A stretch of 32,000 nt of DNA, taken from contig NZ_CP011034.1 of the NCBI RefSeq assembly GCF_001465295.1, positions 2,430,001 through 2,462,000 on the forward strand, in the 5' to 3' direction. Both the position numbers and the translations under genes were made by a program. The notes under the pieces were generated by a model that was not told where the DNA came from, ran no database searches, and saw nothing but the letters and a program-made list of their open reading frames with translations. Origin of the DNA: Pseudoalteromonas translucida KMM 520 (GTDB lineage: Bacteria > Pseudomonadota > Gammaproteobacteria > Enterobacterales > Alteromonadaceae). Positions 4,532-30,221 of this stretch are shown here, in pieces. Every line of letters starts with the position of its first letter. Positions within the stretch are counted from its first letter, which is position 1.

Positions 4532-6139
4532 CTATTGCAAGAAATGCTTTATCAGTTCTGCTTTAACTACTTTGTTAGAAGCATTGACTGGCATTGCGTC
4601 AATTATTTTTATTTTTCTGGGTACTCGATAATTTGCCATGCGCTCACGACACCAAGTCATTAAGGTTGGCTCATCAAGTTCTGCTGATGATTTTAAAGTA
4701 ATAAATGCACAGCCAACTTCTCCCATGCGCTCATCTTTAATTCCTACCACTGCAACTTGTGCAATAGCGCTGTGCTCAATAAGTACTGCCTCTATTTCTG
4801 CCGGGTAACAATTAAATCCGCCCGAAATGTACATATCTTTTAGTCTATCGGTAATGCTTAAATAGCCATTTTTATCTAAATGCCCAACATCGCCGGTGTG
4901 CAGCCAATTGTCTTTATCTATGGTTTCGGCGGTGGCTTGTGGTTGCTCAAAATACCCTTTCATTACATGAAAACCACGAATACAAATTTCGCCAGTTTCA
5001 TTAGCACCAAGTATTTCACCCTGCTCAGACATTATTGCTATTTCGGTGCCTTCAATTGCGCGGCCACTGGTACTGGCTATGGTGGCAACGTCGGTATCAA
5101 TGCCACAAATACTTGCTAAACCACCGCACTCAGTTAATCCATATGCCGTGGTTACCACTTTAAAACCTAATAACTCACGCATTCGCTCTATTAAAATAGG
5201 TGGAATAGTCGCAGCGCCAGTAACGGCTATGCGCAGGCTACTTAAGTTAGCGCTTGCTAACTGCGGATGAGCAAGCAATGATAAATAAAGTGTTGGTGGC
5301 CCAGGTAATACGGTTATTTTATCTTGGCTAATTCGGGCAAGCACTTCATCGGCGTCAAACACTGCTTGTGGTAAAATAGTCGCGCCCGCTAATAAGCAAC
5401 TTACCCATCCGGCTTTATAACCAAAGGCATGAAAAAACGGATTAACTACTAAATAGCGATCGCCAGGCACTATGCCTAAGGTTTTTACAAATACGCTAAA
5501 CGCTTTAATTATTGCCCCATGGCGGCTCATAACGCCTTTGGGTTTGCCTGTTGTGCCTGAGGTAAACATAAGATCAGACAGATTATCTGCACCAACGCCT
5601 AAGGCAATTTCACGGGCACTGCGCTCATCAACACTGTCTTTTCTGGCTAAAAAGCGCTGCCAATCACAACAAATATCAAGTGGCTCCCCTTTACGTGGGG
5701 TTAAGGTTACAATCGACAGTTGCTGTGGGGTAAATAATTTTGCCAATTCGCCGGGGTAGTCACTTTTTAAAAAGTCACCAACACTAAATACTAGCTTTGC
5801 GCCGCTGCGATTAATAATTTCAGCCGCTTCAACGGCTTTCATACGGGTGTTAATAGGTACTAACACTGCTCCGGCCATTTGCAAACCAATCGCGGCAAGC
5901 ACCCAGCGCCCAGAGTTTGCCCCCCAAATAGCCACGCGATCGCCCGGCTTTATTCCAAAAGCAATAAGTGCACGGCTAACATTTAAACTCTCAGTAGGTA
6001 AGTCTTGATAGCTTATTTTTACTTCGCCATCTTCAATAGCAATAAGTTGTCCATGGCGTTTTGCAGCAGCAAACACTAATTTAGGAATACTATCCACTTC
6101 GTTGCTAATGCTAGGGTTTAATGAATTATTGATCGTCAT
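4532..6139 (-). CDS. AMP-dependent acyl-CoA synthetase/ligase (steroid or side-chain CoA ligase candidate)
   Basis: The AMP-binding motif FTSGTTGKPKGV is present, as are GYGLTE-like (AYGLTECGG) and TGD motifs. The track ORF starts at 6208 but would overlap the kstD 3' end by 59 nt. The internal ATG at 6139 (MTINNSL...) lies 10 nt after the kstD stop and is preferred. Confidence 0.85.
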   Translation of the reverse strand: MTINNSLNPSISNEVDSIPKLVFAAAKRHGQLIAIEDGEVKISYQDLPTESLNVSRALIAFGIKPGDRVAIWGANSGRWVLAAIGLQMAGAVLVPINTRMKAVEAAEIINRSGAKLVFSVGDFLKSDYPGELAKLFTPQQLSIVTLTPRKGEPLDICCDWQRFLARKDSVDERSAREIALGVGADNLSDLMFTSGTTGKPKGVMSRHGAIIKAFSVFVKTLGIVPGDRYLVVNPFFHAFGYKAGWVSCLLAGATILPQAVFDADEVLARISQDKITVLPGPPTLYLSLLAHPQLASANLSSLRIAVTGAATIPPILIERMRELLGFKVVTTAYGLTECGGLASICGIDTDVATIASTSGRAIEGTEIAIMSEQGEILGANETGEICIRGFHVMKGYFEQPQATAETIDKDNWLHTGDVGHLDKNGYLSITDRLKDMYISGGFNCYPAEIEAVLIEHSAIAQVAVVGIKDERMGEVGCAFITLKSSAELDEPTLMTWCRERMANYRVPRKIKIIDAMPVNASNKVVKAELIKHFLQ

Positions 6140-6149
6140 ATGCAATTCT

Positions 6150-7874
6150 CTAGTCATTGGCTTCTGCGCCGCGGTTAGCAGTAATGTGATTAGCCGCAAC
6201 GTAACCAAAGGTCATAGCTGGGCCAATTGTTGCACCCGCGCCTGGGTAGCTTGTGCCCATAACAGAGGATGAGCTATTACCAATGGCATAAAGTCCTGCA
6301 ATGGGCTCACCCGATGGGCGTACCACTTGGGCATACTCATTAGTAAGCAAGCCACCTTTAGTGCCAATATCACCCGGATGAATTTTTAATGCGTAATAAG
6401 GGCCTTTTGTTAGCGGGGCTAAACAAGGGTTAGGCTTAACTTTGGTGTCGCCGTAGTAACGGTCAAACACATTACCGCCACGGTCAAAGTCTTCATCTAC
6501 ACCCGTTGCTGCGTAGTGGTTCATCTTTTGTACTGTTTGTGCTAATCCATCAGCATCAATATTAACTAGTTTTGCCAGCTCTGCTAAGCTATCGGCTTTA
6601 AAATAAACCGAGCCTAACCAAGCTTTAGGCGCTCTGCTATCTGGCATAATTTTGCCAGGCATCAGTGGTCCCATAGCGTACTCATGGCGAAAATGGCCAT
6701 CAAAAACCACCCAAGCTGGAATAGAATTACCCATTTTTTGATGATTACGATACATAGCATCACCAAATTCTAAATAAGGCGCTGCTTCGTTAAAAAATCG
6801 TTGCCCTGCACCATCAACAACAATAGCACCAGGAAAGGCTCGCTCGGCAAATAAACCGCGAGCGTTGCGCTCTTTTGGTACATTTAAGGTAGGTGTCCAC
6901 CAGCACCAATCAAGTAAATCGGTGGCTGCGCCTAGTTTTTGCCCCGCTTCTAATGCCGCGCCAGTGTTACCGCCTTTAGGCGTTGCGCTCCAGCTTTGTT
7001 GAGACGGTGCCGGTAAATATTTTTCACGTAGTGCTTGGTTTTGCTCAAAGCCACCGCTGCCCATTATTACGCCATAACGCGCATTTAATGTAAGTTCTTG
7101 GCCATCGCGTAGCACTTTAATACCGGTCACTTTGTCGTTATTAATAACAAAATCGGTAAACTCTGTATCGCGCCATAATGGAATATTACGATCGCATAAC
7201 GAGTGGCGCAGTGACGCCACTAAACTCGCACCTAACCCAGCTCTGCGATCGCGGCGTCCTTTTTTACGCTGCTTAAAGTCCAATTTATAACGAAGCATTA
7301 AGCCAATTATCATCAGCATCCAACCACGCTCTTTCGACACTGCTTTATGTGCTTGGCGCGCAGTCCACGACATTTTCCCCATCAGTAATGCATTACCGGC
7401 AGCAGGCTGTTGGTTATTCATTTCATCGCCCAGCCCGGTGGTATCGTATAGCTCTGGATCCATACTGCGCCCACCCGGTAATGAGCCTTCAAGGTGTTGA
7501 TAGTAATCGGGGTACTTATCGGCAACCGCAAATTTAACCCGGCTATTAGCTTGCAGCTCGCGCAGCATTTTTGGTGCATTATCTAAATAGGCACGAATAC
7601 GCGTTTCATCAACACTGCCTTGGCTGGCCGCTTTAATATAAGTGAGTGCTGCTTCGTAGCTGTCTTTGCCGCCAAGTGCACGAAATTCATCGTTATTTGG
7701 GATCCAAATACCACCTCCAGATATTGCAGAGGTGCCTCCGTATTTATCGGTTTTTTCAACAATAAGTACTGAGTTCCCCTGATCGGCGGCAAACAGTGCT
7801 GCAGTCATTGCACCCGCTCCCGAACCGACAACAATTACATCGTAATTTTTTTCAACATCATTGGCTGTGGTCAT
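6150..7874 (-). CDS. kstD: 3-oxosteroid Delta1-dehydrogenase (KstD/TesH-like FAD flavoprotein)
   Basis: 574 aa. RBS AGGAGAAGG is present. The N-terminal FAD fold reads DVIVVGSGAGAMTAALFAA...VEKTDKYGGTSAISGGGIWIPNN, typical of KstD. The length matches KstD/TesH (about 570 aa). Confidence 0.82.
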   Translation of the reverse strand: MTTANDVEKNYDVIVVGSGAGAMTAALFAADQGNSVLIVEKTDKYGGTSAISGGGIWIPNNDEFRALGGKDSYEAALTYIKAASQGSVDETRIRAYLDNAPKMLRELQANSRVKFAVADKYPDYYQHLEGSLPGGRSMDPELYDTTGLGDEMNNQQPAAGNALLMGKMSWTARQAHKAVSKERGWMLMIIGLMLRYKLDFKQRKKGRRDRRAGLGASLVASLRHSLCDRNIPLWRDTEFTDFVINNDKVTGIKVLRDGQELTLNARYGVIMGSGGFEQNQALREKYLPAPSQQSWSATPKGGNTGAALEAGQKLGAATDLLDWCWWTPTLNVPKERNARGLFAERAFPGAIVVDGAGQRFFNEAAPYLEFGDAMYRNHQKMGNSIPAWVVFDGHFRHEYAMGPLMPGKIMPDSRAPKAWLGSVYFKADSLAELAKLVNIDADGLAQTVQKMNHYAATGVDEDFDRGGNVFDRYYGDTKVKPNPCLAPLTKGPYYALKIHPGDIGTKGGLLTNEYAQVVRPSGEPIAGLYAIGNSSSSVMGTSYPGAGATIGPAMTFGYVAANHITANRGAEAND

Positions 7875-9648: not shown

Positions 9649-10748
9649 AATATGCTCTCGGCTGCTATTTTTTTGTCTGTAAGTAAGTAACTATTAATGC
9701 CTGAATCAGTTTTACGCTGACAAAATAATTCATCATTGCTTTCTAACCAATTTAAGTGCGCTAGGGTTTCGCCTAGTGCCATCATACTTTCTATAGGTGA
9801 AAGAGTGCGTTTAAATAAATGCTTCATTGCCTGATAGGCATTAAATTCAGGGGCTTGCAGTGCAAACTCTCTTAATATATCTAACTGCTCAAAGTGATGG
9901 TCAATCAACTGTTGTACGCGTAAATGCATGTGGCGAAATACCGGGCCATGGGCAGGTAATACTAAAGTTTGTGGATCGAGCGTGTGTAGTTTTTCAAGCG
10001 AACGTAGCCAGTTTTTTAATGGCTGACCTTGCGGCTCTAACTCAGACACTAAAATATTTGAACTAATATTGGGCAATAACTGATCGCCAGCTAGCAGTAG
10101 TTTGTCAGCTTCACAATAAAGGCACGCATGCTCTGGCGAATGCCCCTCCCCTATGACTATTTGCCAACGGCGCTTACCTATGGTGAGCACATCCCCTTCA
10201 CGCAGACGATTAAATGACGGCGGGCTAAATTTTATAAAGGGATCTTTACGGCAACTAGCAATGATCACATCTAACTCATCACGTGGTAAACCTGCTCTAT
10301 GATAAAAGTCTAATTGGTTGTCACTGCCAAGTGCTGCGGTGTTATTACTCAGCGTTTTTAGCATGTAAAACTCACCAAAAGTCATATATAGCGGCACATT
10401 AAACGTGGCCATTAACCAACTAGCTAGGCTGCTATGGTCATAATGAAAATGCGTACAAATAACGCCTTTAATTACTTTTTTGTTGCAATGTTGTTCTATT
10501 ACCGTTAACCACAATTGCCGTGTTGTGTCATTATTAAGCCCGGTATCGAGAATATACCAACCGTCGTTATCTTCGAGTAAATAAAGATTTATATGATCCA
10601 ACGACATCGGCATGGGCATGCGTAACCACAACAAACCTTCAGCTATCTCCACTACCGAACCATCCGCATTGGGTGGAGTAATTGGATATTCTAAAAGGCT
10701 ATGCAGCTGATGGCCTTGTGATTCTTTGGGTAAAATCATCGATTTCAT
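9645..10748 (-). CDS. Metallo-beta-lactamase-fold hydrolase with a roughly 90-aa C-terminal extension; first gene of the long minus-strand operon
   Basis: 367 aa. RBS TGGAGAAATA is present. All MBL metal ligands are visible: THFHYDH (HxHxDH), GHSPEH, AGD, PAHG. Confidence 0.8.
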   Translation of the reverse strand: MKSMILPKESQGHQLHSLLEYPITPPNADGSVVEIAEGLLWLRMPMPMSLDHINLYLLEDNDGWYILDTGLNNDTTRQLWLTVIEQHCNKKVIKGVICTHFHYDHSSLASWLMATFNVPLYMTFGEFYMLKTLSNNTAALGSDNQLDFYHRAGLPRDELDVIIASCRKDPFIKFSPPSFNRLREGDVLTIGKRRWQIVIGEGHSPEHACLYCEADKLLLAGDQLLPNISSNILVSELEPQGQPLKNWLRSLEKLHTLDPQTLVLPAHGPVFRHMHLRVQQLIDHHFEQLDILREFALQAPEFNAYQAMKHLFKRTLSPIESMMALGETLAHLNWLESNDELFCQRKTDSGINSYLLTDKKIAAESIL

Positions 10749-10816: not shown

Positions 10817-10834
10817 TCTGTAATACGTCCAAAA
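10817..10834 (+). promoter_or_regulatory. Box copy A (GTCCAaaagGACGATGcT) in the divergent MBL / MFS-kshA intergenic region; candidate operator or activator site
   Basis: The box ends 67 nt before the ATG at 10902. It contains the symmetric core CGTCC-N4-GGACG. It matches the boxes at 17777-17794 (+) and 30045-30062 (-). Confidence 0.55.
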
Positions 10835-10901
10835 GGACGATGCTGAAATTATTAGCAAAGTTAAGGTAGCTTAAAACAATATCAAAAAGAGAGAGCTATA
10901 A

Positions 10902-13496: not shown

Positions 13497-15665
13497 TTAA
13501 AATGAGTAAGTTATTTCTGCTCCATAAGTTACCGGGTCGCCATAGTAATTTAAGCCACCAATAAATACCCCCGACGAATCACCCAACGGCACACCGTTAA
13601 TTCGGTATTCTTCATCGGTCATGTTTTTACCCCAAATAGAGGCGCTAAAGTCGCTGCCGGCAATTCTTTTAAGTGAAACACGGGCGTTAAGTAAGTTGTA
13701 TTTTTCAATACGAGTATATTGGGCTGAAGGTTGATTATGAAACGCAAAGTGATCGTCCACAAAGCTGTAGTCGGCACCGGCGCTAAATTCACCAAGGGCT
13801 GTTTCACTAATGTAATTTAATCCAAGCGACCATTTATTTTTTGGACTATATGGAAACTCGGCACTGTCGGTAACATCGTTTGCTACCCCAGTGTACACAT
13901 CGTAAGTAATAAACTTGTCGTATTTAGGGTCTAACAAACCGTAATTAAAGTTTAGCGTTAAATCATCGGTTAATGCCGCTACTAATTCAAACTCTAACCC
14001 CGCCACTTTTGCCGATCCTGCGTTTTGTATATCTGAGTACGCACCTAAATATTCCGACATTTGCATATTGGTAATATCGTTATAAAACACCGCAATATTG
14101 GCTTGAATACGTTGATCTAACCAGCGCGATTTAAGGCCCCACTCGTAGGCAATTACTTCTTCTGGTGCATAGGGTTTGACTGCTAATGCTTGAGTTGCTG
14201 CTTCACCATTAAAACCACCCGCTTTCCAGCCTTGTGATACTTTTACATAGCTGTGAATATTATCTGCTAGCTCATAGTTAAGTGATGCCATAGCCGAGGT
14301 GTTATTCCAAGTATCGCCCGCTGTGGTGTATGGTAGAGGGAAAAAATAAGCAGCACTAAAGTCATCTGGGTGCTCTATATAAAATGACTTTTCTTCTGTG
14401 GTCCAACGCAGGCCCCCAGCCAACATTAGCTTGTCGCTTAGTCGATATTCTACATTACCATAAGCGGCAACCGAGGTAGACTCAACACCATAATAGTTAT
14501 TCACTGTGCCAAAACCCAGTACATACGGGTTGTTTACATCAGATTCTTCCTTAAAGTAAAACAAGCCTGCAACGTAGGTTAAATTATCTATGTCACCAAT
14601 AAATTGTAGCTCTTGTGATACTTGCTCATGCTCTACATGGCGGTAGGTATGAAAGCCAAGAAAATCAGCGCCATCGTAGTCATTACCATCGTCGTAATCT
14701 ATTTCACGTAGTGCCGTAATTGACTTAATAGTTAAGTTATTACTTTGCTGCCATGTAACTGTAAGTGCATGGCCTGAGCTTTTAGAGCGATCAAATATTG
14801 CGCCGTCTAACGCAGCACTTTCTTGGCGATCTTTCGTATCTTCTGGCATTGCACCTGCAATATAAACTTGGCCCAACGGAGGAGTATTTTTTTTATTGCT
14901 GCTATCGTAAGTGTAGTAAAACTCTAGATTATCGCTGTGCTCATACAAGGCACCAAAACGCAGTGAGGTAGAATCAAGCTCTTTAAACTTATCAATATCA
15001 GAACTTGTCGAAAGGTTATCGTAAAAGCCGTCGCGCTGTTTTTTATTAGCGGTAAAATTAAAACTGAGTTTATCGTTAATTTGCGCCGAGTCGGCAGTAA
15101 CATAAACATCTGTCATACCGTAGTTACCCGCCCCTACGCGCACTTCGCCGGTAAACTCACCACTGGGTTTACGCGTTACAATATTAAGTGCCCCACCTAT
15201 TGTATTTTTACCATAAAGCGTACCCTGCGGCCCGCGCAGCACTTCGACGCGCTCTATAGCGGCTACATCAAATAAACCACCGACATTTTTAGATACAAAT
15301 ACCCCGTCTATATACACACCAGTGGTGGGCTCCCAGGTAACTGCAGGGTTAATTGTAACCGAGCCACGAATGGCAATTGTAGCACCTGTACTGCCGCCTG
15401 GAGTTTCTGATATTTGCATATTTGGCGTATATACACTGAGATCTTCTACATCAGTAATGCCTTTATCGGCCAATGCTTGGGCATTAAACACGGTAACTGC
15501 TGTAGGTAGTTCTTGTAAGTTTTGTACCCGCTTTTGCGCGGTTACTTGGATCACTTCCAAACCTTCTTTTTTAGTACTTTGCTCTTGAGCCGCGAGTGTC
15601 GAATTTGCCATGCTAATTAAGGCTAACGCTATCGCTGCATTTAGTGGTTTTTTATTAATATTCAC
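13497..15665 (-). CDS. TonB-dependent outer-membrane receptor
   Basis: 722 aa. The start is GTG with AAGGA 7 nt upstream. A signal peptide is visible (...SMANSTLAAQE), followed by a plug region (VIQVTAQKR...TAVTVF), beta-barrel repeats and the C-terminal motif ...AEITYSF. Confidence 0.92.
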   Translation of the reverse strand: MNINKKPLNAAIALALISMANSTLAAQEQSTKKEGLEVIQVTAQKRVQNLQELPTAVTVFNAQALADKGITDVEDLSVYTPNMQISETPGGSTGATIAIRGSVTINPAVTWEPTTGVYIDGVFVSKNVGGLFDVAAIERVEVLRGPQGTLYGKNTIGGALNIVTRKPSGEFTGEVRVGAGNYGMTDVYVTADSAQINDKLSFNFTANKKQRDGFYDNLSTSSDIDKFKELDSTSLRFGALYEHSDNLEFYYTYDSSNKKNTPPLGQVYIAGAMPEDTKDRQESAALDGAIFDRSKSSGHALTVTWQQSNNLTIKSITALREIDYDDGNDYDGADFLGFHTYRHVEHEQVSQELQFIGDIDNLTYVAGLFYFKEESDVNNPYVLGFGTVNNYYGVESTSVAAYGNVEYRLSDKLMLAGGLRWTTEEKSFYIEHPDDFSAAYFFPLPYTTAGDTWNNTSAMASLNYELADNIHSYVKVSQGWKAGGFNGEAATQALAVKPYAPEEVIAYEWGLKSRWLDQRIQANIAVFYNDITNMQMSEYLGAYSDIQNAGSAKVAGLEFELVAALTDDLTLNFNYGLLDPKYDKFITYDVYTGVANDVTDSAEFPYSPKNKWSLGLNYISETALGEFSAGADYSFVDDHFAFHNQPSAQYTRIEKYNLLNARVSLKRIAGSDFSASIWGKNMTDEEYRINGVPLGDSSGVFIGGLNYYGDPVTYGAEITYSF

Positions 15666-15970
15666 TATTTAGTCCTTGTTTAAAATTGAACGCGAGTAAA
15701 ATTAACTAACAGGAATATCGCCAGTTACGCGCGCTGTACCTAACACTACATAAGTTAATTTTGAGACCGCTTTACACAGTCTCAAAACTTAACGTATTGC
15801 GCTTTCATAATTACAAAAAGCAAATTGCTGTATCACGTTATAATCGCGTGTTTATCAACAATAAATGTAAGGTTTTTATCCTCGCACACTATTACAAAAA
15901 CTAAATAGTCCGCATGAACGATAGCTAAAAATAATGAGGAATAACAAAGACTAAAAGGCAGGAATTAATA

Positions 15971-16017: not shown

Positions 16018-17457
16018 TCAGTCGGATGTTACTTGCGCGACCATCATGGCTTTAAACTGATCATGATGCGGCGGTAATAAGCCCCACTCACCACGAGGGT
16101 CGTGTTTTGGGGCAACAAATACAGTACGCTGATGGCTAAAGGCTAAAAAGCCTTCACGACCATGATAATGCCCCATACCCGAGGCACCTACGCCACCAAA
16201 TGGCGCATCGTGCATTGCCGCATGCATTAAGCAATCATTTACCGCAACTCCACCCGATGAAGTGTTTGCTAAAAGCTTACTCAGCTCTGCGTCATTTTCG
16301 CCAAAGTAATACAGCGCTAATGGTTTAGCACGGCTGTTAATATCGCTAATAACGCCATCTATATCATCATAAGGAAGTAGCACTAATGCAGCGCCAAATA
16401 TTTCTTGCTGCATAATATCTAGCTCTTTATCTGGGGATATAACTAATTGCAGTGGTAAACGTTTATCGCTTGTGACCAACTCTGCTAAATTAGCAACCTC
16501 ATGACTACTAAGAACTTGGCATCCAGCATGGCGAGCTTGCTCAATTAAATCGACGACTCGTTGGCAATGTTGGCGGTTAACGCTAGGAACAAAGTCAGGG
16601 TTGTGAGTAATTTTTGGATAAAAGTGACGAAAATTTTCGAGTAATAATGCAGCCACTTGATCAAGCTTATTGCGCGGTACATAAACAATGTCGGGGCTAA
16701 CACACACTTGGCCGCCATTATTACTTTTTGCTAAGGCTAAGCGTTTGCAACTTTCGCTTAAATCGCAATCTTGGCTAAGTACTACCGGCGATTTACCGCC
16801 AAGCTCTAAGGTAACAGGTACTAAGTTTTTAGCCGCTGCCGCCATAATTTTTTTACCTACTTGGGTACTACCAGTAAAAACTAAATGATCGAACGGCAGT
16901 TCGCTAAATTTAGCGCCAGTGTCGGCCCCGCCTGTCACTACACTCACTAGTAATGGATCTATGTGTTTGGCAAATAATTGCGCTACTAACGCCGCTGTTT
17001 TAGGCGTGACCTCTGATGGTTTAAGTATGGCGCGATTACCCGCCCCTAATACACACGCCAACGGAGCAAATAAGGTATAAAGTGGCGCATTCCAAGTACC
17101 TATAATGCCCACACTGCCTTTGGGTTGGTATTCAACCCGTGCGGTACTACCGAGTTGATCATAAGGGGCAAACACTTCGCGGTTTTCACTTTTAAGCCAT
17201 GGCTCTAAGTTGTCGCGGGTATATTTAAGGCTGGCTAGCGAGCCGAGCACATCATTCATAATAGAAAAGCCTTGGCTGCGACCATTAAAGTCAGCTTCTA
17301 TTGCCTCGGCAAATGCTTGGTGATGCTCTACAAGCAAATTTATAACTTGTTGAATACGCTCTCGCCTTTGCGCTGCTGTTACCAACATTTGCAATTTATG
17401 CACTTGTTGCTGATGCTGCAGCAAAGCTGCCATTGAACCTGAATCATTGCTGTTCAT
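16018..17457 (-). CDS. NAD(P)-dependent aldehyde dehydrogenase (ALDH3 / coniferyl-aldehyde-DH-like); apparently monocistronic
   Basis: 479 aa. ALDH motifs are present: ELGGKSP, catalytic Cys in GGQVCVSPD, and PFGGVGASGMG. It has its own promoter region and terminator. Confidence 0.88.
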   Translation of the reverse strand: MNSNDSGSMAALLQHQQQVHKLQMLVTAAQRRERIQQVINLLVEHHQAFAEAIEADFNGRSQGFSIMNDVLGSLASLKYTRDNLEPWLKSENREVFAPYDQLGSTARVEYQPKGSVGIIGTWNAPLYTLFAPLACVLGAGNRAILKPSEVTPKTAALVAQLFAKHIDPLLVSVVTGGADTGAKFSELPFDHLVFTGSTQVGKKIMAAAAKNLVPVTLELGGKSPVVLSQDCDLSESCKRLALAKSNNGGQVCVSPDIVYVPRNKLDQVAALLLENFRHFYPKITHNPDFVPSVNRQHCQRVVDLIEQARHAGCQVLSSHEVANLAELVTSDKRLPLQLVISPDKELDIMQQEIFGAALVLLPYDDIDGVISDINSRAKPLALYYFGENDAELSKLLANTSSGGVAVNDCLMHAAMHDAPFGGVGASGMGHYHGREGFLAFSHQRTVFVAPKHDPRGEWGLLPPHHDQFKAMMVAQVTSD

Positions 17458-17589
17458 GCACTATATCCTTACTAGGTTTTACACTTGCCTGGCAAACAAT
17501 ATTTGCTTACACACCATATTGCAGCTTTTGCATTGCAAGTAAACTAATTGAGCTGTGCATCCTTTCTAGCTGTTTTTACTCAAATAAAC

Positions 17590-17607
17590 CTCGTCCACTT
17601 GGACGAG
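17590..17607. promoter_or_regulatory. Perfect palindrome CTCGTCCA-ct-TGGACGAG in the ALDH / flavin-reductase-MarR divergent intergenic region; candidate operator
   Basis: 8+8 nt perfect inverted repeat with a 2-nt centre. It contains the same CGTCC-N4-GGACG core as box A. Confidence 0.5.
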
Positions 17608-17776
17608 TTCTAGTATTTAAATTATTTAATGTACGGTTGCTGCAGTCACTATTTGCTCTATTTAAATTGGCCACTTAAAGCTAATCTTCGCAATAAAACT
17701 TAACCGCTGTTTAATATAAAATAACCTAAATAAATTGCTGATTAATCATATAAATAGCAAATGCCTGTGTTGTTTA

Positions 17777-17794
17777 GTCCATTGAGACGATGAT
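17777..17794 (+). promoter_or_regulatory. Box copy C (GTCCAttgaGACGATGaT) upstream of the flavin-reductase-MarR / lower-pathway operon
   Basis: The box ends 56 nt before the ATG at 17851. Extended to 20 nt, TAGTCCATTGAGACGATGAT matches 16/20 positions of the reverse complement of 30045-30064 (TAGTCCAGATTGACGATGAT). All four differences fall in the central spacer. Confidence 0.6.
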
Positions 17795-17850
17795 GAAAAA
17801 CAGCCAGATCATGATACTGACATTATATAACAGTAATAAGGCGAGTTAAC

Positions 17851-18831
17851 ATGGCACAAGCAGAATTTGATAGTCAGGCATTTAGACAGGCGTTGGGTAG
17901 TTTTACTACTGGCGTAACAATTATTACTGCCACCGCTCCAGATGGCACCCCTGTTGGTCTTACCGCAAACAGCTTTAATTCTGTTTCGTTAGACCCACCT
18001 ATGGTGCTATGGAGTTTGGCAAAAACCTCTCTTAGTGTGGCTGCCTTTAGCGAGGCCGAGCACTGGAACGTTCATGTTCTCTCGCAGCACCAACAAGAGC
18101 TGTCAAATAAATTTGCCGCAAAAGGCGAAGATAAATTTAATGACACTAATCTCGAAGCGGGGATTAGCTCTGCACCACTTATTGCCGACTGTAGCGCGCG
18201 TTTTCAATGTCGTAATATGGTAACGCACGATGGGGGTGATCATCTTATTTTTATAGGTGAAGTGCTGGGGTTTGATCATCAAGCTCTACCGCCACTGGTG
18301 TTTCAGCAAGGTCAATACGCAATGACTGCACGTAAACCTTGGGCAGCGGTTAACTTATCTAGTGAGCCTACAGCGCCACAGTGCAGCTACAACGAAGATT
18401 TACTAGGTTACTTGCTTGGGCGTTCACATTTTCAAATGCTGTACCGTATGCGTAAAGTACTCGATGAGCAAGCGCTGGAAGATTCACACTTTTTTGCATT
18501 ATCGGTATTAAATATTCAGCAAAATCTGAGTTTAGAGCAGCTAAATACCCACCTTGATTATACCGGTCACAGTGTCAATCTTGAAGATATGGCCTTTTTA
18601 GAAAAGCAGGATCTTATTTGCCAAAAAAGCGAAGACAATTACCAACTTACCACCGCTGGGCGAGAAACCTCACTACACCATATTGCGCAAGCAAAAGTAA
18701 TTGAAGAAGAGCTCATTACAGAGCTTGGTGCAGGCGACGTAATGGCATTAAAGCTATTACTTAAACGCCTTATTCATCAAACCGATCCTGGCTTACCTGA
18801 TCTTTGGTCAACAGAGGATAAAAGCGCATGA
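17851..18831 (+). CDS. Fusion protein: N-terminal HpaC/HsaB-type flavin reductase domain plus C-terminal MarR-like winged-helix domain
   Basis: 326 aa. Residues ~8-160 read FRQALGSFTTGVTIITA...GLTANSFNSVSLDPPMVLWSL...GGDHLIFIGEVLGF...PLVFQQGQY, a classic flavin-reductase fold. Residues ~180-320 read LLGYLLGRSHFQMLYRMRKVLDEQ...FFALSVL...LSLEQLNTHL...LEKQDLI...QLTTAGRE...EEELITELGAGDVMALKLLLKRL, following the MarR helix pattern. The stop overlaps the next start (ATGA at 18828-18831). Confidence 0.75.
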   Translation: MAQAEFDSQAFRQALGSFTTGVTIITATAPDGTPVGLTANSFNSVSLDPPMVLWSLAKTSLSVAAFSEAEHWNVHVLSQHQQELSNKFAAKGEDKFNDTNLEAGISSAPLIADCSARFQCRNMVTHDGGDHLIFIGEVLGFDHQALPPLVFQQGQYAMTARKPWAAVNLSSEPTAPQCSYNEDLLGYLLGRSHFQMLYRMRKVLDEQALEDSHFFALSVLNIQQNLSLEQLNTHLDYTGHSVNLEDMAFLEKQDLICQKSEDNYQLTTAGRETSLHHIAQAKVIEEELITELGAGDVMALKLLLKRLIHQTDPGLPDLWSTEDKSA

Positions 18832-22946: not shown

Positions 22947-23714
22947 ATGTCAGTTACCGCAGTTACAGGTTCAGCATCAGGGATTGGCGCCGCCGTTTGT
23001 GAAAAACTACGCGCAGCAGGTCATACCGTGATCGGCATAGACCGCCATCAAGCCGAGGTTAATGCCGATTTATCATCTCCCGAAGGTCGCGCTAATGCCG
23101 CAGAGCAAGTTATCAAATTAGCCAATGGCAAGCTAGATGGCCTAGTTTGTTGTGCGGGCCTTGGCGTTACCGCACCAAGTAGCAGTTTAGTGGTTTCGGT
23201 TAATTATTTTGGCTCAACCGAGTTAATTGAATTACTCCAACCTGCACTCGCTAAAGGTGAGCAGCCAGCTATTACCGTTATTGGCTCAGTGGCCGCTAGT
23301 CAACAAGTGGCAGATCCACACCCTATTATTGAGTTAATGCTCAACAATGACGAGCCAGCCGCTCGCGCACTGGCAGATGAGCTTGGCCAACCACAAATAG
23401 CCTATTCGGCGTCAAAATACGCGCTCACTGTGTATTGTCGTCGTTTAGCCGTTAAAATGGGAAGTACCGGCGTGCGTATTAACCTAGTTGCGCCCGGTGC
23501 AATTGAAACTCCACTGCACGAAGCCTCTAAGCAAGATCCACGTTTTGGCGAAGCCGTACGTAACTTTGTTGCGCCTATTGGTCGCAATGGTCAGCCAAGT
23601 GAAATTGCCGATGCGGTCAGTTTTTTACAATCAGCCCAAGCCTCATTTGTACATGGCAGCATTATTTATGTAGATGGTGGTATGGACGCCATGATGCGCA
23701 GTGGCAAGTTTTAA
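22947..23714 (+). CDS. hsdA: 3alpha-hydroxysteroid dehydrogenase/carbonyl reductase-like SDR
   Basis: 255 aa. RBS TAGGAG is present. From memory it is co-linear with Comamonas testosteroni 3alpha-HSD/CR: VTGSASGIGAA...GHTVIGID...ADLS.PEGR...LDGLVCCAGLG...VSVNYFG...YSASKYALTV...APGAIETPL...DPRFGE...VHGSIIYVDGGMDAMMR..KF. This recollection needs an alignment to confirm. Confidence 0.7.
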   Translation: MSVTAVTGSASGIGAAVCEKLRAAGHTVIGIDRHQAEVNADLSSPEGRANAAEQVIKLANGKLDGLVCCAGLGVTAPSSSLVVSVNYFGSTELIELLQPALAKGEQPAITVIGSVAASQQVADPHPIIELMLNNDEPAARALADELGQPQIAYSASKYALTVYCRRLAVKMGSTGVRINLVAPGAIETPLHEASKQDPRFGEAVRNFVAPIGRNGQPSEIADAVSFLQSAQASFVHGSIIYVDGGMDAMMRSGKF

Positions 23715-23827
23715 ACACTAAATAACCTGAGCTCCGGATAATAAACTTATCTCAACCAGCTATTTTCAGCGCTAACTGCGTTGAATTTTCTTGCAATAGG
23801 CCAGTTATTGACGTGTAAATTCGCCTT

Positions 23828-23842
23828 GTTTTCACTGAAAAC
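23828..23842. promoter_or_regulatory. Perfect 7+7 palindrome GTTTTCA-c-TGAAAAC upstream of the second KstD-family gene
   Basis: Inverted repeat seen directly in the sequence. It lies about 100 nt upstream of the ATG at 23940, in a 225-nt non-coding gap. Confidence 0.35.
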
Positions 23843-23939
23843 CTCTGGCTAGAGAAAATAAAATTAAATATAACGATGATTCAATACGTTAGTAAATCTC
23901 TTAACCAGAGTTCAGATTAAATACTTATAAGGATATACC

Positions 23940-25445
23940 ATGAACCCAATACTGAGCACACACAAAGTTCGCGCTTTTGAATCGATTAGTCACTTTGATA
24001 TTAGCACCGACGTACTTGTGTGTGGTTATGGCGGCGCAGGAGCCGCCGCCGCATTAGAAGCTACAACCTTAGGTGCTAAGGTTACTATTTTAGAACGTGC
24101 CAGCGCTGGGGGTGGCTCGACTGCATTATCTAGTTGTGAAATGTATTTAGGCGGCAGTGGCGGCACCGCATTACAAAAAGAGTTAGGTGTAGAAGATAGC
24201 ACCGAAAACATGCTGGCTTATTTACGCGAAGCACTTGGCCCGTATGGCGATGAAGATAAAATGCGTTGCTATGCACAAGGCGCTGCAGGACATTTTGATT
24301 GGGTTGAATCTCTTGGTGTACCCTATAAACGCGCAGCCTTTTTAGAGCGTACAGTAGTGCCACTCAGTGATGAGTCGTTATTATTTACCGGTAATGAAAA
24401 AGCTCACCCTTTTAATGCCATTGCTAAGCCCGTTCCACGCGGTCACGTGCCCTCTAAAGTGGGCGACGAAGGCGGTAAAATATTTATGGATGCCATAATG
24501 CAGCGCATAGCAGCTGCGGGCGCTGAGGTAATTAATGATTGTCGCGCTATTGCTTTATTAGTAGGTAAAGATAATCGTGTTTGCGGCGTAATTGCTAAAC
24601 GCGACAACCGAGAAATTGCGATTCGCGCAACTCGTGGTGTGGTATTAGCCACTGGCGGCTTTGTAATGAACGACACCATGACACGCCAATATATGCCTGA
24701 TCTACTTGAGTATTGCGTACCTTATGGCAACACCTTCGATATGGGGGATGGTATTCAATTAGGCCAAGCGGTCGGCGGGCAAACTATCAATATGGAACAG
24801 GCTTTTATGTCGTTTCCGCTCTATCCACCAGCAAAGCTAACCTACGGAATTTTACTGAATAAACACGGTCAGCGTTATATAAATGAAGATGCGTATTTAG
24901 CCAGGCTGGCGCATTATTCTTGCCAACAAGCTGAGCAAAAGTTTTATTTATTAGTACAAGAAGAGGATTTTGAGGCGTCACATTATTTACAACGTGCAGC
25001 CATTGTTGCCACTGGCGATAGCATAGCAGAAGTTGCCAGTGAAGCGTCCTTCCCGGCCGGTATGCTTGAGCAAACTGTTAGCTACTTCAATCAGCACGCC
25101 AGCAATAAACAAGACCCACTATTTCATAAAACCGCCGAGTGGCTAAAACCGTTAAACAAGCCCCCTTTTGCCTTATTAGAATACTCTGCAAGTGAAATGA
25201 CAGCTGTAATTATGCCTGGTACAAAAGGTCCGCTGATATTTACGCTTGGTGGGCTAAAAACACTCACTACGGGTGAAGTGGTTAATTTAGACAATGAAGT
25301 AATAAGTGGACTTTATGCTGCTGGTCGAGCAACCGCGGGATTACCACGCACAGCCAAGGGATATGCCAGTGGTATGTCGGTTGGAGATGCCACTTTTTTT
25401 GGCAGACTCGCTGGGCGCAGCGCCGCTAAGCACCTGCCAATTTAA
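23940..25445 (+). CDS. KstD/fumarate-reductase-family FAD flavoprotein; candidate 3-oxo-5alpha-steroid Delta4-dehydrogenase (TesI-like)
   Basis: 501 aa. RBS AAGGAT is present. The FAD fold reads DVLVCGYGGAGAAAALEA...ILERASAGGGSTALSS, with C-terminal GLYAAGR. It is clearly distinct from, and shorter than, the kstD at 6150-7874. Confidence 0.6.
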   Translation: MNPILSTHKVRAFESISHFDISTDVLVCGYGGAGAAAALEATTLGAKVTILERASAGGGSTALSSCEMYLGGSGGTALQKELGVEDSTENMLAYLREALGPYGDEDKMRCYAQGAAGHFDWVESLGVPYKRAAFLERTVVPLSDESLLFTGNEKAHPFNAIAKPVPRGHVPSKVGDEGGKIFMDAIMQRIAAAGAEVINDCRAIALLVGKDNRVCGVIAKRDNREIAIRATRGVVLATGGFVMNDTMTRQYMPDLLEYCVPYGNTFDMGDGIQLGQAVGGQTINMEQAFMSFPLYPPAKLTYGILLNKHGQRYINEDAYLARLAHYSCQQAEQKFYLLVQEEDFEASHYLQRAAIVATGDSIAEVASEASFPAGMLEQTVSYFNQHASNKQDPLFHKTAEWLKPLNKPPFALLEYSASEMTAVIMPGTKGPLIFTLGGLKTLTTGEVVNLDNEVISGLYAAGRATAGLPRTAKGYASGMSVGDATFFGRLAGRSAAKHLPI

Positions 25446-25690: not shown

Positions 25691-26617
25691 TTATTCTGTT
25701 TTTAACACACGGCCAAGCGTTATATCGCCTTCAATGGTGGTGCGGTTAATAACGCGATTGATCCCAGGCTTAGTGCCGGTAGTGCAGTGCATTGCACGCC
25801 AGTTATCCCACAGTACCATGTCGCCTTCGCGCCACTTATGAAAGTAAGTAAATTCCGGCTTTTGTACATGCGCAACTAGTCGCTCAAGTAGCTCTATAGA
25901 TTCATCATTCGATAAACCAAATTGCTGCGGAGTAACAACTCTATCTAAAAACTGCTCTACCACCTCTAGCACTTTACGACCACTGATCGGGTGCGTAACT
26001 ACCATAGGGTAAGCTGCGTCAGAAAAGTCAGGAAAGCCAATATCGGTTGGTTTTGTTGGGCTGTTAGGGCCTGGCTCATAACCGTCTAAGTTAACGTAGC
26101 GCATATGGCGACGCTGCATACTAAAGCTGTAAACTACTTCTAGCTGTTCAATTAAAGCTTTAGTGTCGTCGTCTAGTGCATCGTACGCTTTTGCTAAATC
26201 GCCAAAACCGGTCATGCCATCTTCTGCTGCTACCACCACAGCACGTAATAAGGCACCATGATTTGGACGCGCTGTATAATGCAAATCCATGTGCCAATCT
26301 AACCGACCCACAATTTCTTCGCCTTTATAAAACGCAGTTTGAAACTTATCCATAGGACCACCATTTTGTAGCACAAATAACTCTGGATACTTATCACTGG
26401 TAGTAACTTTTAACGGATGTAATTCTAACGGGCCAAAAATGCGACTAAACTCAATTTGCTTTTCAGGGCTAATATCCTGATCTCGAAACACTAAAATAGC
26501 GTGTTCGTACCATAGTGCTTTAAGTTCAGCTTTTATTTCATCGGTAAGTGGCTCGTTAATATCGAAACCCGACACCTCTACGCCAACATTATCAAGCGGA
26601 GTTACTGTAAGCTTCAT
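25691..26617 (-). CDS. TauD/TfdA-family Fe(II)/2-oxoglutarate-dependent dioxygenase
   Basis: 308 aa. RBS GAAGGAA is present. The facial triad and 2OG motifs are intact: WHMDLHY (HxD), GMTGFGD, LWDNWRAMHCT (distal His), RVINRTTI (Arg). Confidence 0.85.
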   Translation of the reverse strand: MKLTVTPLDNVGVEVSGFDINEPLTDEIKAELKALWYEHAILVFRDQDISPEKQIEFSRIFGPLELHPLKVTTSDKYPELFVLQNGGPMDKFQTAFYKGEEIVGRLDWHMDLHYTARPNHGALLRAVVVAAEDGMTGFGDLAKAYDALDDDTKALIEQLEVVYSFSMQRRHMRYVNLDGYEPGPNSPTKPTDIGFPDFSDAAYPMVVTHPISGRKVLEVVEQFLDRVVTPQQFGLSNDESIELLERLVAHVQKPEFTYFHKWREGDMVLWDNWRAMHCTTGTKPGINRVINRTTIEGDITLGRVLKTE

Positions 26618-26656
26618 TTTTTATTCCTTCTACTTAGCTAAGTGAATCCGACAAAT

Positions 26657-27427
26657 TTAGTCGACTAAACCTGGATCTAGGCGTAATTCTTTGCGCGCCA
26701 TTGCTTCCCAAACAAAAGGGAAACCGTTGTCGTCAGCAATAGATACTTTTTTAACTTCTTCATCACTTAATGGTCGTCCGCCACCTGCTAATTCCACTTC
26801 ATACGCGCGTTTACTGCGCCACTCTAAAGTAATTGCTCTTAGGTGTGCTTGGCGCAGGTTTTTACCTACCACTAACGAGCCGTGGTTTGCCAGTAATGCC
26901 CACTTAGCATCCCCAAGTGCTTCAACGGCTGACAAGCTAGTTGCTTCGTTTTCAAAGGTGCCTTCATATTCATCATAAAGTGGTAATTCAACACCACAAT
27001 ACGCACTTGCTTGGTCGTATACTGGCGGCACTTTTTGCATACAAGCCCAAATACCACTCCAATGCGGGTGATTGTGAATAACAACATGTACGTCAGGTCG
27101 CATTGCGTGTAGCTGTAAGTGCAAACCAAGAGCTGGGGTCACATTCCAATCACTATCAAGCACATTGCCCTTTGGATCTAGCGTAACGATATCGCTGGCG
27201 GTTAACTCCCCCCAAGCGAGCTCCCATGGGTTAGTTAAAATATTACCGTTTTCTAATCGGTAAGTAATATGCCCTGCAATATGCTCATCCCATCCTTCAC
27301 GAATAAGCATGCGACACATAAGCGCAACTTGCGCTTTTTCGCTTAACTCTGGTAATAATTCTTTGCGACCCGGACGAGTGGCAAAGCGCTCTAGCATTGA
27401 TTGATTAAGGCCATCATATTTTTTCAT
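26657..27427 (-). CDS. Class II aldolase/adducin-domain protein (Zn-dependent aldolase/decarboxylase/epimerase family)
   Basis: 256 aa. The Zn-ligand motif VIHNHPHW and the family motif LLANHGSLVVG are present. It sits 39 nt upstream of, and is co-directional with, the TauD gene. Confidence 0.8.
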   Translation of the reverse strand: MKKYDGLNQSMLERFATRPGRKELLPELSEKAQVALMCRMLIREGWDEHIAGHITYRLENGNILTNPWELAWGELTASDIVTLDPKGNVLDSDWNVTPALGLHLQLHAMRPDVHVVIHNHPHWSGIWACMQKVPPVYDQASAYCGVELPLYDEYEGTFENEATSLSAVEALGDAKWALLANHGSLVVGKNLRQAHLRAITLEWRSKRAYEVELAGGGRPLSDEEVKKVSIADDNGFPFVWEAMARKELRLDPGLVD

Positions 27428-27557
27428 TATTATTATACCTTTCTGTTGCTGTGCAAAATAAACATGTTAAATAATGGTTTAAATAATAGGTCTGAGTGGT
27501 TAATAAAGCTTGTCTCATTGCGCCAAGTTGTTATCCGATCTGGCCATTAACTAGCTA

Positions 27558-28574
27558 TTAGCGCACCGCAAATAACGCATGGCGAAAAGCACTTGGCGAC
27601 AACCCAGTCCATTTTTTAAAAGCGCGATGAAACCCCGAACTATCGGCATACCCAAGTTGCTGACCAATGCGGGTGATTGATAACGTAGGATCGCTCAAAT
27701 GTCGCCGCGCATGAATTTCTCTTACTTGATCTATTAGTTGTTGATAGCGCCAACCTTGTGCTAATAATTTACGGCTCAAGGTACGGCAACTACAATGCAG
27801 CTTTAGTGCTGCATCGTGCAGCGATGGTGGACTTGCCGGATCTTCAACAATTATTTGCGACAAGCGCCAAGCTATGTCGCCATGATTTCGAGTAATGCTT
27901 TTTTCTTCGCACAGTTTTTTATAAAAGTTGACACTTTCTGGGCTCGACTGCGGTAGTGGTCGATCAAGAATCGCAGCATCAAAAAATAGCTGGGTTACTG
28001 GGGCATCAAATTCGACGGGGCAATTAAAAATGGCTTGGTAACGCTCAGCATGAACTGGCGCCGGATAATTACAACGTAGTTTAGTAATAGGCAATGCTTG
28101 ACCAAGCACCCAACGACAAGTAGTAACTATATTGGCAAGCAAATCCTCTATTGCTAATACCCGCAATTCACCCAGCTCAGTTTTAGCGTCAATTTGATAA
28201 CAGCCTTCGGCTTGAATTTCACTAAAGGAGGTCACTACTAAATTTCCAGAAAACCGGCCTGAGTAATTTTGATATTTAAGCCCAATATGGCTGGCATCGC
28301 GTAGCGTCGCACTGCTCATCATTAAATATGCAAGTTGGTCGTGGGTAGCAATAGAGCGTTTTAAACCTAATATGAGCCCAAGATCGCTGCCCTCATAACA
28401 CTGCTGTGCATCAGTTAGTAAACCTCGGTGCTGTTTAGCATTAATGAGCACATTAGGTTTGTGGAGCTCACTGCGACTGATACCATTGTTGGCAGCAATG
28501 GCATTGGTATCCATTCCCAAGCTAGATAAAAAATCCAGCAACCAAATAATATAACGCGTATCAGTATTGACCAT
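27558..28574 (-). CDS. AraC/XylS-family transcriptional regulator with an N-terminal ligand-binding domain
   Basis: The C-terminus carries two HTH motifs (...LKLHCSCRTLSRKL... and ...ITRIGQQLGYADSSGFHRAFKKWTGLSPSAFR). The preferred start is the ATG at 28574 (MVNTDTRY...), preceded by GAGGGG. The track start at 28640 lacks an RBS. Confidence 0.88.
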   Translation of the reverse strand: MVNTDTRYIIWLLDFLSSLGMDTNAIAANNGISRSELHKPNVLINAKQHRGLLTDAQQCYEGSDLGLILGLKRSIATHDQLAYLMMSSATLRDASHIGLKYQNYSGRFSGNLVVTSFSEIQAEGCYQIDAKTELGELRVLAIEDLLANIVTTCRWVLGQALPITKLRCNYPAPVHAERYQAIFNCPVEFDAPVTQLFFDAAILDRPLPQSSPESVNFYKKLCEEKSITRNHGDIAWRLSQIIVEDPASPPSLHDAALKLHCSCRTLSRKLLAQGWRYQQLIDQVREIHARRHLSDPTLSITRIGQQLGYADSSGFHRAFKKWTGLSPSAFRHALFAVR

Positions 28575-28726
28575 GTTACCCCTCGTTTGTGTAATTAAAT
28601 CCAACCTTTTATCAATAACCGTTACTCTTAAATTGCACACTTATATGAAGCAATTTAATACTATTATTTGTAACATAACCGCTAGCTGTTTAAGTGTTAT
28701 GCTTTAGTCGTGTTTAACCAACATTT

Positions 28727-29982: not shown

Positions 29983-30044
29983 TCTTATCTCCGATGTCGT
30001 GCTTATTAATTTAGCACCCAGCATAAGGCTGACGCTGAGCAACT

Positions 30045-30062
30045 ATCATCGTCAATCTGGAC
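30045..30062 (-). promoter_or_regulatory. Box copy F (minus-strand reading GTCCAgattGACGATGaT) upstream of the SDR-MaoC operon
   Basis: The box ends 62 nt before the ATG at 29982, in the same orientation relative to the gene as copies A and C. Confidence 0.6.
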
Positions 30063-30221
30063 TAACCCGATAACTATTAGCAATATAAGAATGAAATTGT
30101 GGTGTGATACACGAGCAGCATACTGAAGGCTTAAGTTAGATAACTAATTAAGGAGATAATTTTAGTGCTTATAGCAAAAAACCTATACTAGGTTTCATAA
30201 AAACTCAGCATAGGTTTTGTT

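Follow-up and report, generated by a model that had tools for sequence, protein, structure and literature searches.

In Actinobacteria, the TetR-family repressors KstR and KstR2, which are relieved by CoA-thioester intermediates, bind short palindromic operators that are repeated before many steroid-catabolic operons and have made prediction of the regulon possible. According to reviews, homologues of KstR are absent from steroid-degrading Proteobacteria, and the regulation of steroid and bile-acid degradation in this phylum is largely unknown. The reviews name one positive regulator, TesR/TeiR, which is genetically required for the induction of most steroid genes of Comamonas, and refer to certain Pseudomonas genes as TeiR-like or as corresponding to tesR; published work portrays TeiR as a kinase, associated with the membrane, that sets off a signalling cascade. 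No DNA motif of TesR/TeiR was found in the literature searched, which did not extend to subscription papers, so that an earlier description is possible. Here we describe a palindromic element, the steroid box, that precedes steroid-catabolic operons in a 32,000-nt stretch of the Pseudoalteromonas translucida KMM 520 genome (contig NZ_CP011034.1, positions 2,430,001 to 2,462,000; hereafter the window) and in related loci from beta- and gammaproteobacteria. We have little doubt that the box is a genuine transcription-factor site, and we consider it likely that it is a steroid-regulon site lying over the -35 position and bound by a LuxR-family activator of the TesR/TeiR type.

The window comes from a gammaproteobacterium, has a GC content of roughly 43% and contains a cluster of genes for the steroid 9,10-seco pathway. 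These encode a thiolase, short-chain dehydrogenases/reductases (SDRs), two acyl-CoA dehydrogenases, a FadD3-type ligase, KstD, a KshA-like Rieske protein, a TesA1-like flavin reductase, TesE, TesF and TesG, a MaoC dehydratase, major facilitator superfamily (MFS) transporters and a TonB-dependent receptor; intergenic DNA makes up 8.8% of the window. In sequence, it matches a contig of assembly GCA_017653575.1 at 97% identity and a metagenome-assembled genome of Pseudoalteromonas at about 84%. The comparison set consisted of 80 loci fetched around TesF homologues, with 20–40 kb inspected per related genome, except for a Vibrio plasmid that was read whole.

The original prediction, made from the sequence of the window, had proposed a repeated box of the form GTCCA-N4-GACGATGNT as the operator of a regulon, with three full copies. 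This pattern has exactly three matches in the window and none in 100 dinucleotide-preserving shuffles, so the repetition itself is well founded. A scan with a symmetrised position weight matrix (PWM), built from the collected loci and thus trained on the same locus collection to which it was applied, returned exactly four sites in the window, all of them intergenic, with scores of 18.6–23.3 bits against a shuffle mean of 0.25 sites. Box A (22-mer 10822..10843, + strand; 18-mer 10827-10844) reads AATACGTCCAAAAGGACGATGC, scores 19.4 bits, matches the pattern exactly and lies 57 nt before the ATG at 10902; it had originally been assigned to 10817-10834, 67 nt from the start codon, and these values need correction. 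It is located in a 153-nt divergent region between an operon for a metallo-beta-lactamase-fold protein (MBL), a CoA ligase, KstD, FadD3 and an acyl-CoA dehydrogenase (- strand) and the operon for an MFS transporter and the KshA-like Rieske protein (+ strand). Its proximal arm, GGACGATG, and its -10 both face the MFS-Rieske operon, and no -10 was found at the canonical offset on the divergent MBL-KstD-FadD3 side. Boxes C and F are located as first reported. Box C (22-mer 17772..17793, + strand; 18-mer 17777-17794), GTTTAGTCCATTGAGACGATGA, has a score of 18.6 bits and lies 56 nt before the ATG at 17851, which opens the operon flavin reductase (TesA1-like)-tesE-tesF-tesG-MFS-SDR(-FAD protein). 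Box F (22-mer 30046..30067, - strand; 18-mer 30045-30062), GGTTAGTCCAGATTGACGATGA, has a score of 19.0 bits and lies 62 nt before the ATG at 29982 of an operon for an SDR (PRK07831-type) and a MaoC dehydratase. The fourth copy, box D, had been missed and surfaced once mismatches were allowed. It shares the divergent intergenic region of box C, points at the aldehyde dehydrogenase gene (16018-17457, - strand) and has the best PWM score in the window (22-mer 17588..17609, - strand, AACTCGTCCAAGTGGACGAGGT, 23.3 bits; 18-mer 17587-17604, - strand, GTCCAAGTGGACGAGGTT). It is also the most symmetric copy, a near-perfect palindrome CCTCGTCCACTTGGACGAG that can be read as CTCGTCCA-NN-TGGACGAG.

The dyad GTC-N6-GAC, recognized from the outset, forms the core of a longer inverted repeat. 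In the symmetrised matrix the element is an imperfect inverted repeat of 16–20 bp, T(C/A)GTCC-N4-GGAC(G/T)A, or, in an alternative reading, a 7-2-7 repeat TCGTCCA-NN-TGGACGA. The asymmetric box initially described is thus one imperfect instance of the inverted repeat, near-perfect versions of which are found at 17588-17609 and in Pseudomonas. At promoters, the asymmetry is real. When 61 sites are oriented by their downstream -10, TAGTCC emerges as the distal arm and GGACGATG as the proximal one, so that the orientation of the box relative to the downstream operon is meaningful, as had been suggested. In the logo of these oriented sites, T20 and G21 are conserved on the promoter side only, where a -35 hexamer spaced 17 bp from the -10 would have its 'TG'.

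Each of the four promoters in the window has a -10-like hexamer 18–20 nt after the 22-mer. The predicted -10 of the MFS-Rieske promoter is TAAGGT (10862..10867, + strand), 18 nt after the 22-mer, and its orthologs have TAnnnT at this offset. For the aldehyde dehydrogenase promoter, the predicted -10 is TAGAAA (17563..17568, - strand), 19 nt after the 22-mer, and the same hexamer occurs at the same offset in Thalassotalea (L002) and Pseudoalteromonas (L001). The flavin reductase/tesEFG promoter has a predicted GATACT (17813..17818, + strand), and all orthologs from Pseudoalteromonas to Aromatoleum have GATACT or AATACT at this distance. Here, a 17-bp spacing would put the -35 hexamer, ATGATG at 17790-17795, inside the proximal arm of box C, which supports the proposed overlap with the -35 position. 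In the SDR-MaoC promoter, TATGCT (30020..30025, - strand), 20 nt after the 22-mer, is a prediction only. Across 133 distinct site contexts, -10-like hexamers were found at offsets of 18–19 nt in 72 cases, compared with 1–6 per position at other offsets in the surrounding range and up to 13 at a few isolated ones. The -10 begins about 30.5 nt downstream of the dyad centre, which would thus be positioned near -42.5 with respect to the predicted start sites. In the window, these are predicted near 10874, 17556 (- strand), 17825 and 30013 (- strand), about 7 nt after the -10 hexamers, and would give dyad positions between -41.5 and -43.5. A scan for the sigma-70 consensus reported a canonical promoter at none of the four sites, which indicates that their -35 elements are poor. 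The combination of strict phasing and a poor -35, judged from predicted start sites, is probably the architecture of a class II activator, as at the lux box.

The box is conserved well beyond the close relatives of the source organism. Box A is kept as TACGTCCAAAAGGACGATG in orthologous regions of Pseudoalteromonas, Thalassotalea, Glaciecola and Oceanospirillum. Box C is kept as TTAGTCCAnnnnGACGATGAT before the flavin reductase gene in the same four genera and in Shewanella and Marinobacterium, and a near-identical form is found in the betaproteobacterium Aromatoleum, with flanks that diverge completely. The footprint of box D, CCTCGTCCAnnTGGACGAG, is present in all intergenic regions between the aldehyde dehydrogenase and flavin reductase genes from Pseudoalteromonas to Marinobacterium. 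The steroid clusters of Pseudomonas contain 4–6 copies, including CATCGTCcattcaGACGATG, while in Polaromonas and Comamonas the box in the flavin reductase region is in the opposite orientation. Among TesF-anchored loci, 30 of the 31 with steroid marker genes carry the box, as against 8 of the 50 meta-cleavage loci that have no such markers, and at least two of these eight look like cut or divergent steroid loci.

A replicon-wide scan gave the same picture. A close plasmid relative was looked for and none was found, and the analysis was therefore based on a more distant one, plasmid pYa108 of Vibrio alfacsensis (complete, 221,076 bp), in which syntenic steroid genes are found among exopolysaccharide, phosphonate and other unrelated genes. 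With a matrix trained without the Vibrio sites, pYa108 has 13 matches of at least 12 bits, against 1.9 in shuffles, and all 11 matches of at least 16 bits are intergenic and directly upstream of steroid operons. The operons preceded by these boxes are those for a tesD-like hydrolase, a CoA synthetase, flavin reductase-tesEFG, DUF1329/DUF1302, YCF48-MMPL, MFS-Rieske and MBL-ligase-KstD-FadD3, SDR-MaoC-thiolase, the side-chain operons, etfBA and a tesB-like gene; the SDR-MaoC-thiolase operon, orthologous to that downstream of box F, has the equivalent box TTAGTCCGGTTTGACGATGG. In Comamonas testosteroni, whose locus (L092) was reached via its TesA1 protein and scanned with a matrix from which the Comamonas sites had been left out, the tesA2-tesA1 intergenic region contains TCATCGTCCGATCAGACTAACG (21.7 bits), and three more sites (17593, 20101 and 20156) lie in two neighbouring steroid intergenic regions. 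Thus, in the scan, the intergenic and pathway bias and the phylogenetic footprints obtained with related replicons, the box behaves as an operator tied to steroid-catabolic operons, as the original prediction had proposed.

Genes for DUF1329, DUF1302, a BNR/YCF48-like protein and an MMPL/sterol-sensing-domain transporter recur beside box promoters in several genera (pYa108 = L083 13057-19652, L023 533-3475, L089, L090 and L094), and may form a conserved apparatus for steroid uptake that is controlled in the same way. Close to tesA1, there is a second conserved element, TAGTCC-N7-GGATTC (Comamonas L092, ~9930-9960; Polaromonas L012, ~7200-7225), which has the TAGTCC arm of the box combined with another spacing and another second arm. 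In the window, a possible weak fifth site (15903..15924, - strand, CTATCGTTCATGCGGACTATTT, 11.6 bits) is intergenic, has the core GTT instead of GTC and lies ~240 nt upstream of the TonB-dependent receptor gene (13497-15665, - strand). Its 18-mer is kept in Pseudoalteromonas L001 with different flanks, and we rate it as low confidence because there is no -10 at the canonical offset. The half box reported upstream of the FAD-binding protein gene does exist (AACGATGAT at 23872-23880); as a member of the regulon, however, it has to be discarded. It is part of a 191-bp insertion (23725-23915) that separates the SDR gene (22947-23714) from the FAD-binding protein gene (23940-25445). Neither the 97%-identical strain (L082) nor Pseudoalteromonas L001 has it, and ~35 nt lie between the two genes there; the half box is therefore best attributed to chance. 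No other copies of this insertion were found in the window or in the fetched loci.

In its predicted geometry, the steroid box resembles the lux-box-type sites of LuxR, TraR and LasR, which are 18–20 bp inverted repeats for a dimer with a centre near -42.5, a weak -35 and a strict distance to the -10, and whose regulator gene often lies within its own regulon. The sequence of the steroid box is unrelated to that of the lux, tra and las boxes, and the candidate regulator differs from LuxR, TraR and LasR in having, instead of an autoinducer-binding domain, an uncharacterised N-terminal domain and a PAS-like region, with a putative response to steroids. The 7-2-7 reading, TCGTCCA-NN-TGGACGA, resembles the inverted repeats of NarL/FixJ-family sites, which also have a GerE-type helix-turn-helix (HTH) dimer as reader, although the heptamer sequence differs and neither a receiver domain nor a cognate histidine kinase is found next to the candidate regulator. 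The 5-N6-5 core (CGTCC/GGACG around GTC-N6-GAC), predicted at about -42, is comparable to class II CRP/FNR sites (TGTGA-N6-TCACA, at -41.5), where activation proceeds via contact with RNA polymerase, a mechanism that we propose for the steroid box as well; the sequence is again different, and no CRP/FNR-family gene is associated with the clusters. With KstR/KstR2 operators the box has in common a short palindrome repeated before many steroid-catabolic operons, which likewise allows prediction of a regulon, but the KstR box has a different motif, and neither the window nor the loci examined yielded a TetR-family gene. Similar in content is the regulon of TesR/TeiR in Comamonas testosteroni, where tesA1, tesEFG, kstD, a ligase gene of the fadD3/scdA type and SDR-MaoC genes are included and the box is found in steroid intergenic regions. 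There, a positive LuxR-type regulator is known from genetics, and the link between box and protein is what we infer here. The source organism differs from C. testosteroni in being a low-GC marine gammaproteobacterium with a split cluster, the putative regulator gene being unlinked to the part in the window.

The protein that we favour as the binder is a TeiR/TesR-like member of the LuxR family. The Pseudomonas member, 376 aa long, combines a PAS-like region with a C-terminal GerE HTH and is encoded between box-bearing promoters. Homologues occur in the Nevskia and Aromatoleum loci and in Vibrio alfacsensis (WP_317984259.1), and on the Vibrio plasmid the gene is part of a box-preceded etfB-etfA-regulator operon. 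In locus L005, it is on the same contig as tesF, 40 kb away, and further homologues are present in the genomes of L006, L028, L043 and L048. A distinct Alteromonadales clade of these proteins includes those of Colwellia, Aliiglaciecola and Thalassotalea, and on an Alteromonadales-type contig the gene is located beside tesA2, kshB, SDR and old yellow enzyme genes, with four boxes in its vicinity. Apart from Zhongshania (see below), the taxa with homologues are the taxa with boxes, and the homologous genes lie in operons preceded by a box. No other regulator gene than the TeiR-like one is recurrently embedded among box-bearing operons (Vibrio plasmid, Pseudomonas, Aromatoleum, Nevskia, Oceanospirillum and Alteromonadales-type contigs). 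Members of the family are 32–37% identical overall to the Vibrio protein, whereas the HTH, RNTARxxLRxIFxKTGVxRQ, is nearly invariant, which matches an operator conserved across the same taxonomic span.

The model suggested by these sequences is as follows. A dimeric transcription factor would bind the box and control the regulon of the steroid 9,10-seco pathway; acting as a class II activator, rather than as a repressor, it would stand in for the missing -35 contact and recruit RNA polymerase to the predicted start sites. The binder would be the TeiR/TesR-like protein of ~385 aa, with an N-terminal domain, a PAS-like middle part and the C-terminal GerE HTH. In the source genome, its gene would be expected in a second steroid cluster, beside tesA2, kshB and etfBA, and in the presence of a steroid or steroid metabolite the protein would activate the regulon together with its own operon. 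Within the window, four promoters would be under its control, namely those of the MFS-KshA-like Rieske operon, the aldehyde dehydrogenase gene, the TesA1-like flavin reductase-tesEFG operon and the SDR-MaoC operon.

Several points weigh against this model or its parts. Many of the site counts come from orthologous promoters, which are phylogenetically non-independent, and the PWM was trained on the same locus collection, apart from the Vibrio and Comamonas sites left out for their own scans. Neither the 32-kb window nor the adjoining 9 kb on its left, as read from the 97%-identical strain, contains a TeiR-like gene, and its presence in the source genome is an extrapolation from relatives. The relationship of the TeiR-like family to Comamonas TeiR/TesR is suggested by the architecture (~385 aa, PAS-like region, C-terminal GerE) and by the reviews, and no Comamonas entry was found among the 120 matches listed for a betaproteobacterial TeiR-like query. 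In view of the published description of TeiR as a membrane-associated kinase, its direct binding to DNA is hypothetical. Zhongshania has a TeiR-like gene with the same HTH beside tesEFG-like genes and no box of at least 9 bits within 20 kb. Finally, transcription start sites are predictions, and a repressor over the -35 would be expected to occupy the same place, though it would not need strict phasing. As to Zhongshania, the TeiR-like gene (L046 12081-13205, and L054) directly follows the tesEFG-like genes in a long co-directional operon that has no steroid markers, and may belong to a paralogous system for another substrate. One more regulator of the GerE/CsgD type, a 196-aa protein encoded next to a fimbrial usher cluster to the left of the window, was considered and rejected, having no homologue in any box-bearing locus.

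The flavin reductase gene (17851-18831) offers a local candidate for the binder. MarR dimers bind 16–20 bp palindromes over the -35/-10 region, and a MarR-like C-terminal domain of this TesA1-type protein could in principle bind the box and repress its own operon and the other three promoters until released by a steroid intermediate. The box is palindromic and covers the promoter of this very gene (box C), its conservation is strongest directly upstream of the gene in all lineages, and box and fused protein are found together in marine gammaproteobacteria, Aromatoleum, Polaromonas, Comamonas and Vibrio. The C-terminal domain alone had no match in the PDB by sequence, and it was structure prediction that revealed a complete MarR-type winged-helix fold (predicted local distance difference test, pLDDT, 80–92); two relatives carry a precomputed MarR_2 Pfam match, and the best structural match of the whole protein, over 312 columns, is the C1 reductase, in which a domain of this kind is present. 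Thus, the 'MarR-like fusion' of the original prediction is borne out as a fold. As a reader of the box, it is a poor candidate: the equivalent of the recognition helix (aa 244-252, LEDMAFLEK) is the least conserved secondary-structure element of the protein (majority frequency 0.47), with averages of 0.2 lysine or arginine and 2.7 aspartate or glutamate residues, and the wing lacks a conserved arginine. Such a variable, acidic helix would scarcely be expected to read an operator that beta- and gammaproteobacteria have both conserved. The solved structure of a homologue, C1 (the reductase of p-hydroxyphenylacetate hydroxylase), has this helix docked through glutamates onto the reductase domain at Arg20, where it serves as an allosteric autoinhibitor that the effector releases, and the equivalent of Arg20, Arg12, is invariant in the flavin reductases compared. 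These features together make the domain more likely an allosteric sensor than a binder of the box. In addition, Pseudomonas has 4–6 boxes and a LuxR-type gene but no such flavin reductase gene within 10 kb on either side, and the strict -10 phasing and weak -35 fit activation better than repression. We therefore regard binding by the flavin reductase as improbable. As a two-domain protein of the C1 type (reductase plus MarR fold), the TesA1-like enzyme may, by analogy with p-hydroxyphenylacetate hydroxylase reductase, carry out NADH oxidation gated by a steroid intermediate, as its architecture suggests. Its oxygenase partner, TesA2/HsaA, is encoded outside the window; in relatives, tesA2 is in a second cluster beside the TeiR-like gene.

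It is somewhat less improbable, though still unlikely, that the box is bound by another dimeric regulator encoded elsewhere, perhaps a repressor overlapping the -35, with the TeiR-like protein acting upstream as a sensor or kinase. The description of TeiR as a kinase that starts a signalling cascade, the TeiR-like gene of Zhongshania with no boxes nearby and the inspection of 20–40 kb per genome, the Vibrio plasmid excepted, would all accord with such an arrangement, whereas the recurrence of the TeiR-like gene alone among box-bearing operons, its invariant HTH and the activator-type geometry argue against it. The AraC-family protein (27558-28640), which the original prediction had put forward beside the flavin reductase, is the only canonical DNA-binding regulator encoded in the window; AraC-type activators often overlap the -35, and an asymmetric reading of the box as 5 nt + N4 + 9 nt resembles a two-subsite site for a monomer. 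This candidate is nevertheless very hard to defend, given that its gene was found only in the window and three related loci (L001, L004 and L082), always with the adjacent aldolase and TauD genes, and is absent from the other box-bearing loci, and that the two arms of the site are inverted, perfectly so in box D and Pseudomonas, instead of directly repeated; inverted repeats are atypical for the AraC family. Least credible of all is a box with no protein-binding role, whether because the repeat arose by chance, because it forms an RNA or terminator hairpin, or because it serves an alternative sigma factor as its -35. A terminator scan does report the palindrome (17590-17607) as a hairpin with a T-rich run after it, and the fixed spacing of the box to a downstream hexamer would be expected of a two-part sigma-factor promoter. 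However, it is the sequence, beyond its pairing potential, that is conserved across classes, no gene reads into the hairpin, and the element is upstream of the predicted -10 and hence would not be transcribed; dyad symmetry and the occurrence of both orientations (Polaromonas, Comamonas) are unlike a sigma -35 element, and the downstream hexamers are of the ordinary sigma-70 type, TAnnnT. An activator of the TesR/TeiR type thus remains the reading that we prefer.

The 97%-identical strain (L081) places the left limit of the steroid cluster at the thiolase gene. Beyond it (L081 1262-7580) there are fimbrial usher/chaperone-type genes, the gene for the 196-aa CsgD/GerE-type regulator and then another TonB-dependent receptor gene, with no boxes in this region. 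The genes for a TauD-family dioxygenase, a class II aldolase and the AraC regulator (25691-28640) form a module that was found only in the window, L082, L001 and L004; the corresponding position in Glaciecola (L003) and others lacks it, and it looks like an accessory insertion with its own regulator. The open reading frames 4532-6208, for the FadD3-type ligase (read from a TTG at 6208), and 6150-7874, for KstD, share 59 nt, and since the ligase is called as a 536-aa protein in the related strain, its true start is probably ~66 nt further downstream.

What appears to be new here is the motif, while the proposed mechanism, a transcription-factor site with class II geometry, is a classic one. On balance, we lean towards seeing in the box the long-missing 'TesR box' of the master activator of steroid catabolism in Proteobacteria, from Comamonas to marine Alteromonadales and Vibrio plasmids. 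If so, TeiR/TesR would be a direct, DNA-binding class II activator and not only a membrane kinase, a function for which the box provides a direct test, and sequence would allow the whole steroid regulon to be predicted for any genome or metagenome of beta- or gammaproteobacteria. An operator that is easily scanned would delimit the proteobacterial steroid regulon, including the transporters, TonB receptors and DUF1329/DUF1302/MMPL uptake genes that have a box, and offer a compact steroid-responsive promoter module for biosensors. In Actinobacteria, it was the KstR and KstR2 boxes that enabled such regulon prediction; the acknowledged gap in Proteobacteria has now become testable.

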